From the NCBI GenBank assembly GCA_035650735.1, contig DASRGZ010000058.1, forward strand, positions 1 through 34,116: a stretch of DNA of 34,116 nt, given 5' to 3'. Shown here in pieces: positions 16,996-25,610 of the stretch (the first letter of the stretch is position 1; every line of letters begins with the position of its first letter). Below the pieces are notes generated by a model. The model was not told the DNA's origin. It did not search any database and was given only the letters and a program-made list of their open reading frames with translations. Position numbers and translations under genes: made by a program. The stretch comes from Chthonomonadaceae bacterium. GTDB taxonomy: Bacteria; Armatimonadota; Chthonomonadetes; Chthonomonadales; Chthonomonadaceae.

Positions 16996-17076
16996 GGTAG
17001 ACACCCCCAATCGTGTGGATACATCTCAAAAGCGTGCGCTCCATGAGAAGCGTCAACACGGTTGGGAGGGATTACC
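16996..17076. mobile_element. 81-bp MITE family A, copy 1
   Basis: Imperfect terminal inverted repeats GGTA...TACC; 8-bp target duplication GAAAAGGA (16988-16995 and 17077-17084); identical to 20169-20249. Confidence 0.9.
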
Positions 17077-20059: not shown

Positions 20060-20168
20060 ATTTCACGTAGGAATATTCGCCGTTTGTCATGAAATTCCTG
20101 TGATAACGAATATTATTGAAGGCTCTCCGGTGAATCGTCGAGTCCGGATCGTGGAGGATATGCTATCT

Positions 20169-20249
20169 GGTAGACACCCCCAATCGTGTGGATACATCTC
20201 AAAAGCGTGCGCTCCATGAGAAGCGTCAACACGGTTGGGAGGGATTACC
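20169..20249. mobile_element. 81-bp MITE family A, copy 2
   Basis: Identical to 16996-17076; own 8-bp target duplication TGCTATCT (20161-20168 and 20250-20257). Confidence 0.9.
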
Positions 20250-20258
20250 TGCTATCTA

Positions 20259-20361
20259 ACTCAAGTTGCTACCTTGCCTCTTCGAGAAGGCAAACGGTGA
20301 TGCAAAAGCCGGTTTCCAGAGCGATTCTCTCTCAAACGTGTTCCTAGGTAGCAACTTGGGT
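20259..20361. mobile_element. 103-bp MITE family B (IS982-like ends)
   Basis: Inverted repeats ACTCAAGTTGCTACCT / AGGTAGCAACTTGGGT (15/16 match); 6-bp duplication TATCTA (20253-20258 and 20362-20367). Confidence 0.8.
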
Positions 20362-20422
20362 TATCTAGCGTCGTTAAGGAATCGCCATTTAATCCGAGAG
20401 TTACAGTCCGTTGGCACGACGG

Positions 20423-22303
20423 TCAGGTCCGCGGCGGACAAAGAAGCAGTCGGATCCGAACCGCCGTGCCTTCGCCGACCTTGCTCTCGATTGTCATCCG
20501 GCCCCCGTGGGCCTCGGTGATGCTCCGGCAAATCGCTAGACCCAGACCGGTGCCGCCCGTGCCGGCGGATCGAGCTGCATCGACCCGGTAGAACCGTTCG
20601 CCGAGGTGCGGCAGGTGCTCCGGCGCGATGCCTTCGCCGGTATCCGTCACCGTGACGGTGACGCTCATCGCCTCGACCATCGCGGACACCGTGACCGTCC
20701 CCTCGGGCGGCGTGTGCCGGACTGCGTTCTCCAGCAGGTTGGTAAACAGCCGGGTCAACTCCGAGCCGCTGCCCAGCACCATGAGCGCCGGGGCGATGGA
20801 CTCCAGCCGGATGCAAGGCCGATCCGGCCGCGACACGGCCTCCGCGGCCTCCTCCAGCGCCTCGATCAGACACACCGGTCCCATGTCACGGGCCAACCTG
20901 CCGGCGTCGGCCCGGGCGAGGAAGAGCAACTCCTCCACGATCCGGCTCTGCCGACCGGCGGCGGTGTCGATCGCGGCGAGGAATTCGCGATAACGGTCCT
21001 CGGGCCAGGGGTGTTCGAGGGCCAGGCTGGTGTTGGCCTTGATGATCGACAGGGGCGTACGCAGCTCGTGGGAGGCGTCCGCGGTGAACCGGCGCTGGCG
21101 ATCGAACGCCTCTTCGAGTCGCGCCAGCATCGCGTTGAAGGAGGACGACAGCTCGGAGAATTCATCGCGGCCCGCCACCGGCAGTCGTTCGGAAAGATCG
21201 CTCGCTCCCAGCCGCGCGGCCGTCCCGGCGATCTCTCGAACGGGGCGGAGCGCGCGGCCGGTCAGAAAGGCCCCGCCCAGGCCGGCGGCGAGCAGCCCGA
21301 GCGGCACGAGGGCCAGGAGCGTGGACGTCAGCGCGTCGATCTCCCGCAGAACGCCGTCGAGCGGATAGGCGAGCTGAACCACCTCATCGATCCTGCCCCG
21401 GCGCTCGATCGGCATCGAGAGTATCCGCATCGGCGTGCCGCCATCCCGGACGGTCGAATAGACCGTCCTGCCGGCGAGGGAGCGAGCGAACGCGTGTCGA
21501 TCCCAGGGTTGGTCCCAGTGTTCCCGGCCCGCCCGGTCGCGAGGGAGGATCCGCGGCAGGAGAGGAGGCAGCGCGCGTGGTCTCGACCCGACGAGCGATC
21601 CTTCGGCAGCCGCGACCATCGGATCGAGCACTCTGGGCCGGACGGTGTTCCGCCCGGCGTAGGGAGGTCCGAGCGCATACAGGCGTCCGGCCTCGTGGGC
21701 CCGCTCGGCCAGGGTCCGGTCGACCGCCGCGAACCGGTCGGCCTGCACCTGATACCGCACCACGCCGCCTAAGGCCCCCAGGATGAGGGCCAGCACGGCC
21801 ACGTTCCACAGCGTCATCCGCAGCCGGACCGTGCCCCATCGGCGGAGATGCCAGTTTGTGAGGAGCAAGTATACCAAGTAGCCAAGCATGGCACCGAGCG
21901 TATTGAGCAGGATGTCGTCTACGTCGAATATGCCTGTTCGCAATACGCGTTGCAGGGTTTCTATACACAGACTAAACGCAACCGCGATGCCGAGAACGCC
22001 CTTCCACGAAATCGGCCGGTAGAGCAAAGGCAACAGAAAGCCGAGTGGCATAAACAGGATGATATTCCCCAGTAGATTCTGTATGGCGTCGCTCCATATC
22101 GGGTATCCGCGTAGGTACGGCAATATCGTCTTAAACGGCACGTAGTTGCTATGCACGATTTTAAGCACGCCGGGAACGCCGCCCCCGCCGGGCGGCCCCA
22201 TGCCGGACGGAACGTGGTGCGTGGACACCATAAACGCCAGCAAGACCACGAGATATACTACGAGGAATATGGCGGCAAGCAGAGTTTTAGTATTTGTATT
22301 CAT
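20423..22303 (-). CDS. VanZ-domain::HAMP sensor histidine kinase fusion protein
   Basis: aa ~1-150 VanZ (NYVPF..I, NLLGNIILFMPLG, IETLQ, FDVDDILLNTLG); then TM-periplasmic-TM-HAMP, H-box DASHELRTPL, NLLENAVRH, DTGEGI, GTGLGL. Confidence 0.85.
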   Translation of the reverse strand: MNTNTKTLLAAIFLVVYLVVLLAFMVSTHHVPSGMGPPGGGGVPGVLKIVHSNYVPFKTILPYLRGYPIWSDAIQNLLGNIILFMPLGFLLPLLYRPISWKGVLGIAVAFSLCIETLQRVLRTGIFDVDDILLNTLGAMLGYLVYLLLTNWHLRRWGTVRLRMTLWNVAVLALILGALGGVVRYQVQADRFAAVDRTLAERAHEAGRLYALGPPYAGRNTVRPRVLDPMVAAAEGSLVGSRPRALPPLLPRILPRDRAGREHWDQPWDRHAFARSLAGRTVYSTVRDGGTPMRILSMPIERRGRIDEVVQLAYPLDGVLREIDALTSTLLALVPLGLLAAGLGGAFLTGRALRPVREIAGTAARLGASDLSERLPVAGRDEFSELSSSFNAMLARLEEAFDRQRRFTADASHELRTPLSIIKANTSLALEHPWPEDRYREFLAAIDTAAGRQSRIVEELLFLARADAGRLARDMGPVCLIEALEEAAEAVSRPDRPCIRLESIAPALMVLGSGSELTRLFTNLLENAVRHTPPEGTVTVSAMVEAMSVTVTVTDTGEGIAPEHLPHLGERFYRVDAARSAGTGGTGLGLAICRSITEAHGGRMTIESKVGEGTAVRIRLLLCPPRT

Positions 22304-22306
22304 ATT

Positions 22307-23473
22307 TTATTGCGCAGGAGTTGTGCGCCAGAGTGCCGCACTATGCCGATCTCCTGGAGCGCCTGGAGGAACGCCGCGATGTCGATGACGCCGGTGGCGC
22401 CGGGCATTTCGCGGGGGCTGTCCTTCCTCTCGTCCCTGGGCCGCCCAGCGGGGGCGTCGTTCACGGCCGCCGAAATGCGCGAGCGTTGCCGCCATCAGCT
22501 GGGACACGTCCCTGAAGCGGCCGTTCTTGGTTGAGCCAAGCACGACAACGGCAACTGGATGGTTGGTGCCTGCGTTGACCACGATGACGAGATTGCCGCC
22601 AGCGAGACGGGTGTAGCCGGTTTTCGAAAGTAGCAGGCCGGGATATTTTGTGAAGTAAATGTCCGTATTGACAAATCTATGACGAGTACCTTCGAGCGAC
22701 GTGATGCTTATCGCCGATTGCGTGGTAGCCGCGGCTATCTGAGGGTCTTTTTTGAGCAGTTCGCCTGCAAGCACGGCGACGTCATGCGCGGAGCCGTAGC
22801 TTCCTGCAACCGTTGCGCTTTTATCAAGGCCCGTAGCGTTCAATGCTTGGGTCTGCGCGAGGCCGGCTTGTTGAGCGGCCGTGGAGAGAAGCGAAGTGGT
22901 GTCGGTATTTTCCGCAGAGTCGGCTGCATCGGCGATAGCTTCCGCTCCCACGTTCGACGAAGCTGCAAGCGTGAGACGTGCAATGTCTTCAAAGTTAAAG
23001 GTCTCGCCGTCTCTAAAGCCGACGTCAGCCGCGTTGCCGTTCTGGGCGAGCGCGAACGGCGTCATGGTGACGACGCTGTTCGGCTGGAGCACGTTCGAAG
23101 CGGCGTAGACGGTGAGGAGCTTGGTAATCGAAGCGAGCGGCAATGGTGTGTACGCGTTTTGCGCATAGAGCGTTTGGCCGTTCGTGAGGTCATAGACGAT
23201 AGCAGCGTTGCCGATAAGCGAAATGTTCGCGTAAGCGTTCGGAGCGGCAGGCGTTGTCGACTCGTTCTCCACCGTTGGCGGTTGGATGGCGTTGTTTACC
23301 GCCGCTGAAGCATTGAAAAGATTCGACAGGCTGAGCGAGGTATACGCCTGCGGGATGCAGAACGCGCCTGCGCCGATGATAATACAGTCGGCAAGCACGA
23401 TCAAGGCAAGACGTCGGTGCCCGCGGCGCCTTCGATCACGTTGTATGCGGCGTTTGAGATCGGAGGTCGTCAT
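22307..23473 (-). CDS. Serine D-alanyl-D-alanine carboxypeptidase (peptidase S11 / PBP5-like) with a non-native C-terminal tail
   Basis: SxxK (ASITK), SxN (SSN), KTG (SKTGYT), N-terminal TM segment; RBS AAGGAG. Confidence 0.85.
   Translation of the reverse strand: MTTSDLKRRIQRDRRRRGHRRLALIVLADCIIIGAGAFCIPQAYTSLSLSNLFNASAAVNNAIQPPTVENESTTPAAPNAYANISLIGNAAIVYDLTNGQTLYAQNAYTPLPLASITKLLTVYAASNVLQPNSVVTMTPFALAQNGNAADVGFRDGETFNFEDIARLTLAASSNVGAEAIADAADSAENTDTTSLLSTAAQQAGLAQTQALNATGLDKSATVAGSYGSAHDVAVLAGELLKKDPQIAAATTQSAISITSLEGTRHRFVNTDIYFTKYPGLLLSKTGYTRLAGGNLVIVVNAGTNHPVAVVVLGSTKNGRFRDVSQLMAATLAHFGGRERRPRWAAQGREEGQPPRNARRHRRHRHRGVPPGAPGDRHSAALWRTTPAQ
22345..22464 (-). pseudogene. Fragment of a sugar-phosphate isomerase/epimerase (xylose-isomerase-like TIM barrel) gene
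   Basis: Alternative frame reads VNDAPAGRPRDERKDSPREMPGATGVIDIAAFLQALQEIG, resembling that family's NDAP..R..PG.TGVID...FL.AL..IG(YDGP) motif. Confidence 0.6.
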
Positions 23474-23521
23474 CGTCTCCTTGTCTCCTTGAGCTTGGGC
23501 TGTTAGTCGGAAGGACCGCGA

Positions 23522-24217
23522 TCATCCGGTCGGACGATCCTCGTCGGATTCGGGCGCCCGGAGCACGTACCCCTGCCCGTAGACCGAGTGGATCAGGCGG
23601 ACGGCGTGGCCGTCGTCCACCTTCTGACGGAGCTGCCGGATGCGGACGGCGACCGTGTTCGAATAACTCTCGTCGTCGTTCCAGACCCGCTCCTGGACAT
23701 ACTCGCGCGAGAGCACCCGTCCCTCGTTGCGGGCGAGCGCCTCCAGAAGCGTATACTCCCGCGGCGTGAGCGGGATCTCCCGGCCGGAGCGACTCACGCG
23801 TCGCGCCTCGGTGTCGATCTCCAGATCAGCGATCCGGATGAGCCGCGTCCGGTGGACCGCCGCGCGGCGGATGAGCGCCCGCACCCTAACCCGCAGCTCC
23901 GGCAGCGCGAACGGCTTGGGCAGGTAGTCGTCCGCGCCGATCTCGAACCCGCGGATCCGGTCCTCCAGGGTGCCGCGGGCGGTCAGCATCAGGATCGGCG
24001 TCGGATCGCGGCGGCGCCGGAGCGTCTCGCACACCTCCCAGCCGTCTATGCCGGGGAGCATCAGGTCCAGGATGATGGCGGCATACTCCCGCTCTCGGGC
24101 CAGCGCCAGCGCCTCAACGCCGTCGCGCGCCCAATCGACGGTGTAGCCCGCCTCCTCCAGACTCTCCTGGGTCCGGACGGCGATCGCCGCTTCATCTTCG
24201 ACGAGTAGTAGACGCAT
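23522..24217 (-). CDS. OmpR/PhoB-family response regulator
   Basis: LLVED, LDLMLPG, MLTA, GADDYLPKPF, winged-helix LTPREY..LL..V.GQGY. Confidence 0.95.
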   Translation of the reverse strand: MRLLLVEDEAAIAVRTQESLEEAGYTVDWARDGVEALALAREREYAAIILDLMLPGIDGWEVCETLRRRRDPTPILMLTARGTLEDRIRGFEIGADDYLPKPFALPELRVRVRALIRRAAVHRTRLIRIADLEIDTEARRVSRSGREIPLTPREYTLLEALARNEGRVLSREYVQERVWNDDESYSNTVAVRIRQLRQKVDDGHAVRLIHSVYGQGYVLRAPESDEDRPTG

Positions 24218-24232: not shown

Positions 24233-24427
24233 TTATCCCCCCCCGCCCGGCTCCATCTTTACGCCCTTCGGGGGGGGCGCATGCACCCGGTTGGCAGCCG
24301 CCCGGGCCTGTTCCATGTTGATGTCGTGGTTCGGATCATGGCCGATGCCGGAGAGCGCCCAGAGGAGCGCCCCGAGGAGTAATCCGCCCAGGAGGATCAC
24401 CCCCCCGCGCAACATCCACGCACGCAT
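24233..24427 (-). CDS. Small (64 aa) membrane-anchored hypothetical protein
   Basis: Purine-rich RBS, hydrophobic N-terminus, tight operon spacing between neighbours. Confidence 0.65.
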   Translation of the reverse strand: MRAWMLRGGVILLGGLLLGALLWALSGIGHDPNHDINMEQARAAANRVHAPPPKGVKMEPGGGG

Positions 24428-24445: not shown

Positions 24446-25171
24446 CTACTTGAACGGGTAGTGCAGGTTGGTCGAGGCGTCGCCCCACGTCTGCGCGAAC
24501 GGCAGCGCCTTGACGTGGCTGTCGAGGAACAGATAGGCGGCGACGTCGCCCACGTAGCGCCGCGGCGAGATCTGGACCGCGACCATCAGGTCGTCGTACG
24601 GACGCGGTAAGTCCGCCGGTCCCCGGTCAAGCGGCGGGTTGCAGAACTTCCACCAGAAGTAGACCTCCGGCGGCTCCTGGGCCGGGCCGATCGTAAGCAC
24701 ATCGAGATCGGTGCGGTCGGTGAGGTAGATCGCATCCGCGGGCCTGCCGATCTCCGACAGAGGCCATCCGGGGGCCAGCTCACCGTTCACAGAGAAGCTG
24801 CTCGGGCCCCGTTTCGACAGGCGGTCTTCGGGGCTGTACCAGACATCCTGGTTCCGGACATACGCCTTCAGGAGCGAGGGAAGATCGCCATCTTCCACCC
24901 TCCAGTAGAACTCCCTGTATCCGTTCCAAATCGGCCACCGATCCGGCAGATGTTCGTCGTAGTCGGCGGTATACATATGCAGGGCGGCGCCGATCTGCTT
25001 GAGGTTGCTCAGGGCGGTCGACTTCCGGGCGTTCGCGCGCGCCTTCGCGAAGACCGGGAAGAGGATGGCGGCCAGGACCGAGAGGATGGCGATCACCACC
25101 AGCAGCTCAATGAGGGTGAACCCGGACGGACGGCGTCGCTGCGTCCGATGCAGTGAAGCCAACGGCAACAT
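24446..25171 (-). CDS. Prepilin-type N-terminal cleavage/methylation (DUF1559-like) protein
   Basis: [34 protein letters not shown]-terminal [11 protein letters not shown] 25171 with AGGAG RBS. Confidence 0.9.
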
Positions 25172-25309
25172 GGTTTTTCTCCTACCGGCGGATCCGGTCA
25201 CAGCGGCCCGCGCTCCTCGCGGCAACATGCCGAGTGCCGAACCGCTGACCTTATGGTACCAGTAGAAAATGACGCAAAAGTGACGAGACGCCGCCTATTT
25301 TCGGGGGAA

Positions 25310-25539
25310 ACCCAACATTGACATTGTTGCCCATTCGGTAGTTGCTCCGCCTGCTCCTTGAGCGCCGCCTGGATCACCGGGAGTTTATTTTCATCGGGGG
25401 AGGGATCGGGCGGGCCGGTAAAATGCAATCGCAACTCTGCATTTCCGGTGAGAAGACGCTGGCGGAATTGCGAGAGGACACTGAAATCGAAGCCGGGATC
25501 GGTCAGTTGCAGTCCCAGAGCGTATTTCCAGTCAATGTG
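25310..25539 (-). pseudogene. Degenerate IS1182-family transposase remnant
   Basis: HIDWKYALGLQLTDPGFDFSVLSQFRQRLL (DUF772-type motif) followed by fragments LPVIQAAL and PNGQQCQCW. Confidence 0.8.
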
Positions 25540-25610
25540 AATGGTTGCCAGGCTGACGCCCTCATTGACCAGGCTAAATCTTCCGGATAGCTTACGACTA
25601 CCTCTTTCAT
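25503..25610 (-). pseudogene. Probable truncated 5' end of a UPF0175-family gene
   Basis: TATAAT (25631-25636), GGGAG RBS, then ATG 25610: MKEVVVSYPEDLAWSM.., which runs into transposase DNA and stops after 35 aa. Confidence 0.45.

Follow-up and report, generated by a model that had tools for sequence, protein, structure and literature searches.

We analysed a 34,116-nucleotide stretch of a Chthonomonadaceae bacterium (assembly GCA_035650735.1, contig DASRGZ010000058.1, positions 1 to 34,116; hereafter the window). Its minus strand carries genes for an OmpR-family response regulator and an S11 D-Ala-D-Ala peptidase, followed by a single 626-aa open reading frame (ORF) in which a VanZ domain is joined to a HAMP histidine kinase (Table 1). 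ORF calling and Pfam upheld these three genes where a first-pass annotation had placed them, with VanZ at residues 15-148 of the fusion protein, HAMP at 346-398, HisKA at 403-468 and HATPase_c at 514-620. The boundary drawn around them was too narrow: the unit also includes a 64-aa ORF and a prepilin-type gene and reaches upstream to about 25304, in the order prepilin-type gene, small membrane protein, regulator, variable slot and kinase. A Pfam scan found no integrase or transposase among the unit's five ORFs; a transposase scrap (DUF772) lies outside the edge. The impression, gained by eye, that the VanZ and peptidase DNA is lower in GC was borne out. GC content and GC at third codon positions (GC3) were 0.53/0.67 for the VanZ part and 0.58/0.66 for the S11 core, against 0.70/0.84 for the kinase part and 0.69/0.87 for the regulator; across 1631 long ORFs of the genome the median GC3 is 0.81 and the 5th percentile 0.64.

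Table 1. Features of the locus in window coordinates (TM, transmembrane helix)
Feature	Position	Strand	Basis or remark
VanZ-1/HAMP histidine kinase fusion ORF, 626 aa	20423..22303	-	Pfam, hydropathy, X6 contig bridge
Kinase part: TM1, alpha/beta extracytoplasmic domain, TM2, HAMP, H-box His412, ATPase boxes	20423..21850	-	
Fusion junction	21835..21855	-	Native leader and start of the kinase deleted in frame; N-termini of 98 kin kinase rows; leader in G110
VanZ (Lipocone VanZ-1) domain	21860..22261	-	N80, E115xxQ, D127xDDxxxN134; low GC3
VanZ outer-loop segment	22169..22198	unassigned	Inverted near-copy of 22438-22467 in the scrap, 27/30 identical
S11 D-Ala-D-Ala peptidase, membrane-anchored, Patescibacteria-like	22307..23473	-	Pfam Peptidase_S11, residues 87-314; motifs; tree
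Xylose-isomerase-like gene scrap, out-of-frame S11 tail	22342..22470	-	83% DNA identity to the full gene in G110
OmpR-family response regulator	23522..24217	-	Pfam Response_reg and Trans_reg_C; acidic pocket, D52 intact
64-aa ORF, hydrophobic N-terminus, small membrane protein	24233..24427	-	Kept in other unit copies; no Pfam match
Prepilin-type N-methylation/DUF1559 gene, first of the unit	24446..25228	-	Likely start 25171; Pfam
Conserved leader	25172..25308	-	Direct repeat, 11-bp period, at 25270 and 25281; shared upstream edge near 25304
Transposase scrap (DUF772), just outside the unit edge	25426..25569	-	Not beside the edge in other copies read

The VanZ-kinase fusion is real DNA and not a misassembly, because one contig from another sequencing run, X6, bridges its junctions and six other fused clusters exist. 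This contig of 3333 nt spans positions 20604-23936 with two differences and no gaps, so the junction near 21850 is genuine. Run X6 comes from the same study as three runs marked as possible sources, without being so marked itself; coverage was read for 4 of the 20 listed runs. A second allele of the fusion, P0264, differs by two residues. The abrupt GC shift at the junction and the mosaic neighbourhood could suggest an assembly chimera, yet the X6 contig, the second allele and the six further clusters make this extremely improbable. RNA run X15 held pieces of the kinase, regulator and prepilin-type genes and had no depth over S11 or VanZ, in contigs that cannot show expression. One short contig from run X8, covering 21851-22055, has a VanZ 96% identical to that of the window and leaves its first 15 letters unaligned at the junction, a weak hint of a different downstream join.

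The VanZ part of the protein matched PF04892 at 94 bits (cut-off 30), showed four long helices in the structure model and had the VanZ-1 core motifs as defined in PMC12419801, namely Asn in H2, ExxQ in H3 and DxDDxxxN in H4. The remainder is a HisKA sensor kinase with H, N, G1, F and G2 boxes, HAMP and two membrane helices. Hydropathy analysis gave six segments, four from VanZ and two from the kinase (8-26, 77-95, 103-121, 131-149, 161-179 and 329-347), and the linker at 150-164 has four basic and no acidic residues. Because the helix count is even and the linker basic, the two halves appear compatible with one topology in which VanZ ends on the side where the kinase starts. An AlphaFold model (mean predicted local distance difference test score 70.9, predicted template-modelling score 0.45, from which domain packing is unreadable) rendered the alpha/beta extracytoplasmic domain of the kinase well, and Foldseek searches with it returned kinase-family structures only.

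Stand-alone kinases of this type mostly begin with (M/V)QGFA about 19 residues ahead of TM1, and the leader in genome G110 translates open as RETGGNVQGFA. In P0002 the linker is this G110-type leader with the start codon altered, while P0003 retains the methionine there; the window type, P0001 and P0240 lack it, through differing linkers. Altogether the native kinase start is absent from six of the seven fused clusters and kept in that of P0003, and two fused linkers still hold the kinase leader in translated form. We infer that VanZ ran into the kinase leader first and that the start was lost afterwards.

To place the fusion among its kin, we searched with its residues 1-200, which gave 120 hits among 3584 candidates, four of them (P0001-P0004) with the same architecture; looking up clusters and searching with VanZ brought in P0264, the partial proteins P0266 and P0277, and P0240, which is the full form of P0004. 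Among 98 proteins with the kinase TM1 motif, VanZ stood in front in 10 rows (7 clusters) and was lacking in 88, of which 26 were called from the TM1 methionine with their upstream DNA unseen; the search that yielded the fusions was biased towards them. Within the 90% cluster of the window kinase, 9 of the 11 members are shorter and, as called, unfused. A 130-aa junction query against protein representatives revealed no conspicuous long VanZ-kinase among the best 150 matches, judged by lengths and matched ranges, and scanning genome contigs for VanZ gave 73 loci, none of them close (33-64% over partial segments). VanZ alleles from the same clade occur unfused in P0005, P0267, P0268 and P0272. 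At least six kinases bear other N-terminal extensions (P0008, P0023, P0029, P0036, P0037 and P0046), one of them derived from the isomerase scrap. Judged by contigs of equal length, an S11 gene appears to accompany the kinase of P0002 and, as the pairs P0130/P0023, P0131/P0109 and P0136/P0043, three kinases that are unfused. A VanZ domain on the C-terminal part of a citrate synthase (P0048) is probably an unrelated chimera.

In a VanZ tree of 41 rows the seven fused alleles fell into two groups, requiring 3 changes, and had 0% support as a single clade over 200 bootstrap trees. The kinase tree (92 rows, omitting the window duplicate P0256, the shorter P0004 call and partial proteins) showed fused kinases scattered, with 5 changes for 6 rows against a shuffled mean of 5.9. 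This pattern would agree with recombination between copies and does not fix the number of origins. The fusion is rare among its kin and comes from a locus that has yielded many chimeras, and the mobile operon with its cargo slot is equally the finding.

The S11 protein clearly belongs to its family (PF00768, 94 bits against 27.6), with S115 of SxxK, S172-S-N174 and K284-T-G in place; models of PBP3, PBP7-type endopeptidase, PBP4 and DacD scored 46-63, far below their cut-offs. The first-pass annotation was right to call a peptidase and had passed over its last 54 residues, which are a xylose-isomerase-like piece read out of frame. Among the best 120 matches, eight of the nine taxon-named relatives were Patescibacteria; the ninth, labelled Chloroflexi, lies on a contig carrying the same kinase type. 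A FastTree phylogeny of 62 rows placed the 17 tail-bearing copies in one starred branch beside a Patescibacteria protein and far from the two S11 paralogs of the host. By these comparisons the S11 gene is likely of Patescibacteria origin; for VanZ, whose nearest relatives bear no taxon names, the origin is less certain. Close S11 relatives include prepilin-S11, kinase-S11 and S11-VanZ chimeras, a scrap-kinase join was also seen, and at locus L097 S11, the scrap and 45 nt of vanZ stand by themselves, surrounded by unrelated DNA. The fusion gene likely arose recently as a chimera built from borrowed cell-wall genes. The inverted near-copy shared by the VanZ loop and the scrap suggests local template switching. 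In P0266 the outer-loop motif of VanZ is repeated. A tail-less S11 (P0138) and a close stand-alone VanZ (P0274), on contigs that share a length of 10,660, are possibly a donor-type pair.

One could argue that this cargo is decaying passenger DNA, with VanZ and the fusion of no use. Indeed, the build is mosaic, many variants carry deletions, copies of the unit are broken in G049, G085, G363, G373 and G413, and the junk tail of S11 evolves neutrally, with a ratio of nonsynonymous to synonymous rates (dN/dS) of 0.98 in the S11 frame. Ratios within the unit (S11 core 0.43, regulator 0.21-0.36, kinase 0.24-0.41), which mark all three genes as under purifying selection, also exceed those of the flanking genes (0.15-0.18); close pairs tend towards higher ratios. 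Against this, the S11 core is under purifying selection (p 0.0017, from one pair of two tail-bearing copies), no full-length close S11 among 55 examined lacks SxxK, SxN or KTG, and the VanZ motifs are present in all seven fused alleles. We therefore regard the passenger explanation as doubtful.

The first-pass annotation had proposed that a peptidase and vanZ entered a pre-existing regulator-kinase pair, and comparison with related genomes bears this out, as the same operon occurs elsewhere with other cargo or none. In G001, of the same genus, the flanking genes are adjacent (77-81% identical) with no unit at this site. Altogether 12 further genomes, spread over six families, contain pieces of the unit (about 80-91% DNA identity) with a common upstream edge; the block of prepilin-type gene, 64-aa ORF and regulator is 90% identical in G306, of another family, and 87% in G413, and a fragment of it lies in G221. 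The survey of the class covered 67 other genomes, with four candidates scored per genome. In the phylum, the non-coding leader had matches in 7 of 400 other genomes sampled, each of which stops at 25299-25308, and the kinase sensor region likewise matched 7 of 400. The unit is covered in runs X7 (soil) and X8 (air), where depth over the left flank is only 0-2.6. Of 523 matching plasmid records none covers 80% of the unit, and viral contigs contained neither an S11 relative nor the edge motif. Scanning metagenome contigs for S11 gave two loci, one of which, L096, is identical to the window over 15,164 nt and so not independent.

The slot, counted as lying between regulator and kinase or directly adjoining either, varies in content from genome to genome. 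It holds a glyoxalase in G110, G306, G120 and G363; an EcoRI-type methylase with GmrSD/HNH in G060 and partly in G363; YCII, glyoxalase and RibD in G085; and Phd and PIN with glyoxalase scrap in G049, where at a second locus the regulator joins the kinase directly. Slot genes in all seven genomes lie on the operon strand, and none of the seven has S11 or VanZ in the slot. No S11 protein was found in the 400 other phylum genomes at E 1e-30, and the insert DNA, queried directly in five genomes, recovered only the isomerase gene. Read by eye, the junctions show short shared sequence, and cargo ends are imprecise, with genes cut. Pieces of the kinase 5' end lie among toxin-antitoxin, Fic, nucleotidyltransferase/HepT and restriction genes at L150 (G373:C442), L151 (G049:C292) and L152 (G363:C6), as though defence modules used the start of the kinase as a landing site. 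Glyoxalase and YCII recur at L118, L134, L136, L138, L149 and L152 at 73-89% DNA identity across families, in varying order.

From these comparisons the operon likely moves between Armatimonadota. Because the unit has no integrase or intact transposase, spread would most likely rely on recombination that is anchored where regulator, kinase and cargo DNA is shared and that leaves short-homology joints. Such joints at short shared sequence resemble homology-facilitated illegitimate recombination (PMC6382021). Integron-like cassette slots are similar in having co-oriented, exchangeable stress and defence genes behind one promoter, but the present unit is without an integrase and its cargo has imprecise ends and cut genes. 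In P0124, P0243, P0244 and P0252-P0255 (two clusters) the S11 tail runs on into translated 25301-25254, where the unit has its own upstream edge; at the protein level this points to a head-to-tail or circular form. The edge motif has two strict matches in the genome and is therefore not a genome-wide repeat. Within the leader, 25172..25308, a simple promoter scan called no site; its predicted fold is nothing special (z -0.23), and no Rfam family matched. The host has ComEC, and the same test was positive in 10 of 14 controls, so that support for transformation is weak. A bolder reading combines a mobile two-component operon, a fixed upstream end, a head-to-tail or circular form, and a slot for stress, defence and Patescibacteria genes into an integrase-free gene-capture platform of the Armatimonadota. 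In one lineage of cargo this platform would have produced, and repeatedly tightened, a new sensor whose VanZ, a lipid-carrier enzyme, informs a classical histidine kinase about the condition of wall precursors; we hold this reading to be improbable.

In its gene set the locus is similar to the accessory part of van clusters, and the first-pass annotation proposed an RS-Y-Z-like unit free of vanHAX, that is, a glycopeptide sensing or resistance module made of VanR, VanS, a VanY_D-like peptidase and VanZ. Two published observations lend this some appeal: VanZ lowers lipoglycopeptide binding without vanHAX (PMC7146870), and a DacC-like VanYD is present in some van loci (PMC9689679). Like vanA- and vanD-type clusters (vanRS-HAX-Y-Z), the locus has a regulator, kinase, DD-peptidase and VanZ in one unit; unlike them, it is without vanH, vanA and vanX, and its cargo is exchangeable. 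Our tests did not bear the proposal out. VanS models scored far below their cut-offs (NF033091, 101 against 400; NF033094, 155 against 720), as did VanR models (NF033117, 149 against 350; NF000402, 143 against 480), and no van-specific peptidase model matched at E 1e-10. No Pfam hit to vanH, a D-Ala-D-Lac/Ser ligase or vanX was found among the 25 ORFs scanned in the window; the genome's one strong Ddl hit and its two M15 peptidases sit on other contigs. Furthermore, the host encodes the outer-membrane markers Omp85 and LpxC, an outer membrane usually excludes glycopeptides, and the other slot contents are unrelated to these antibiotics. The locus is probably no sensor of vancomycin-type resistance, and we consider the glycopeptide explanation very unlikely.

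Heavy-metal-type models scored best, though below their cut-offs (kinase TIGR01386, 247.7 against 292.55; regulator 236 against 279). CusS/CusR-like pairs (TIGR01386/TIGR01387) have the same domain order, and such sub-cut-off scores leave a metal signal unestablished. In PMC12419801, VanZ-RDD is reported as fused to a derived kinase and VanZ-1 takes the sensor position of HAAS/PadR systems. Like these Lipocone fusions, ours couples VanZ-1 with an intact predicted active site to a signalling output; unlike them, it sets VanZ-1, without RDD, directly on a classical two-helix HAMP-HisKA-HATPase kinase with an outer domain. The same source describes VanZ-1 beside D-Ala-D-Ala peptidases (VanY and a PBP5-C-linked peptidase). 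There as here, VanZ-1 adjoins such a peptidase and both are predicted to act on wall precursors, but our S11 is Patescibacteria-like, has no PBP5-C match, ends in a junk tail and sits inside a two-component operon. The network file of that article lists no HisKin among the C-terminal partners of VanZ-1, as far as its available part goes. Neither the VanZ-HAMP-kinase architecture nor the operon was found described in the literature searched, which left out most subscription papers. The architecture is thus apparently undescribed so far, while a supplement of PMC12419801 outside our scope may list such fusions.

What VanZ does in the fusion is best weighed between two readings. With a confidence somewhat above even, we favour the view that VanZ is a cell-wall enzyme, co-expressed with and tethered to a kinase whose own sensor is retained. 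Alternatively, VanZ might be a working input: by binding lipid II or some other undecaprenyl-linked precursor, or by turning it over, VanZ would shift the kinase via the neighbouring membrane helices, and the result would be an envelope-stress sensor of recent origin with feedback on its own peptidase. The N, ExxQ and DxDDxxxN motifs intact across the seven fused clusters, an even helix count and basic linker that align the VanZ end with the kinase start, and the loss of the native start from all but one cluster would fit such an input. Nevertheless, we find it rather unlikely, given the many kin without VanZ, the unfused VanZ alleles of the same clade, a search biased towards fusions, the sensor domain that the kinase retains, and the other N-terminal extensions, from which it seems that extensions are tolerated.

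Several observations count against the tethered-enzyme reading that we favour. All seven fused clusters stay in frame, with at least four different linkers and intact catalytic motifs, and selection for the fusion would likewise give seven in-frame clusters. The fused VanZ alleles cluster, none of 500 shuffles needing as few as 3 changes, and the tree indicates that the fusion persisted while the alleles diverged. VanZ-1 has been proposed as a sensor elsewhere (PMC12419801). The other fused alleles are known as proteins, and our dN/dS estimates cover S11, the regulator, the kinase and the flanking genes. Finally, random recombination accounts less well for the fixed upstream edge than an end-specific mobile element would.

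The gap between regulator and kinase contains a Patescibacteria-like S11 gene and a VanZ gene reading in frame into the kinase. Under the tethered-enzyme reading, VanZ would have lost its last residues and stop codon by joining the open kinase leader, and a later short in-frame deletion would have removed the kinase start, so that the kinase is now probably made only as a six-helix chimera. The phosphorylated regulator may bind the repeat of 11-bp period in the leader, a putative box, and drive the whole operon. S11 would trim stem peptides and be co-expressed with VanZ, which is predicted to cleave undecaprenyl-linked wall precursors; the kinase would sense through its own outer alpha/beta domain, with VanZ riding along as an enzyme. 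For the VanZ family, activity on undecaprenyl-linked precursors or lipid head groups is itself a prediction (PMC12419801).

How VanZ acts biochemically is an open question in the literature (PMC7146870; PMC12419801). Here nature provides a VanZ-kinase chimera together with both fused and unfused alleles of a near-identical kinase, a ready test of VanZ, including whether it binds or turns over lipid II and passes this on as a signal. The locus also represents a likely transfer of a Patescibacteria wall enzyme to another phylum, as well as a two-component operon whose cargo changes as it crosses from one family to the next. Automatic annotation would call it vanRSYZ, a name that the present tests do not back; as a resistance finding it is minor.

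Two repeats lie close to the fusion gene. A 107-bp element at 20256-20362, with 18-bp terminal inverted repeats and 68 genome copies at 95% identity or more, is likely an active miniature transposon; no full-size partner was found among end pairs 600-3500 bp apart. An 82-bp repeat with inverted ends, at 20168-20249 and again at 16996-17076, has 15 copies at 95% identity or more and 132 at 74% or more.

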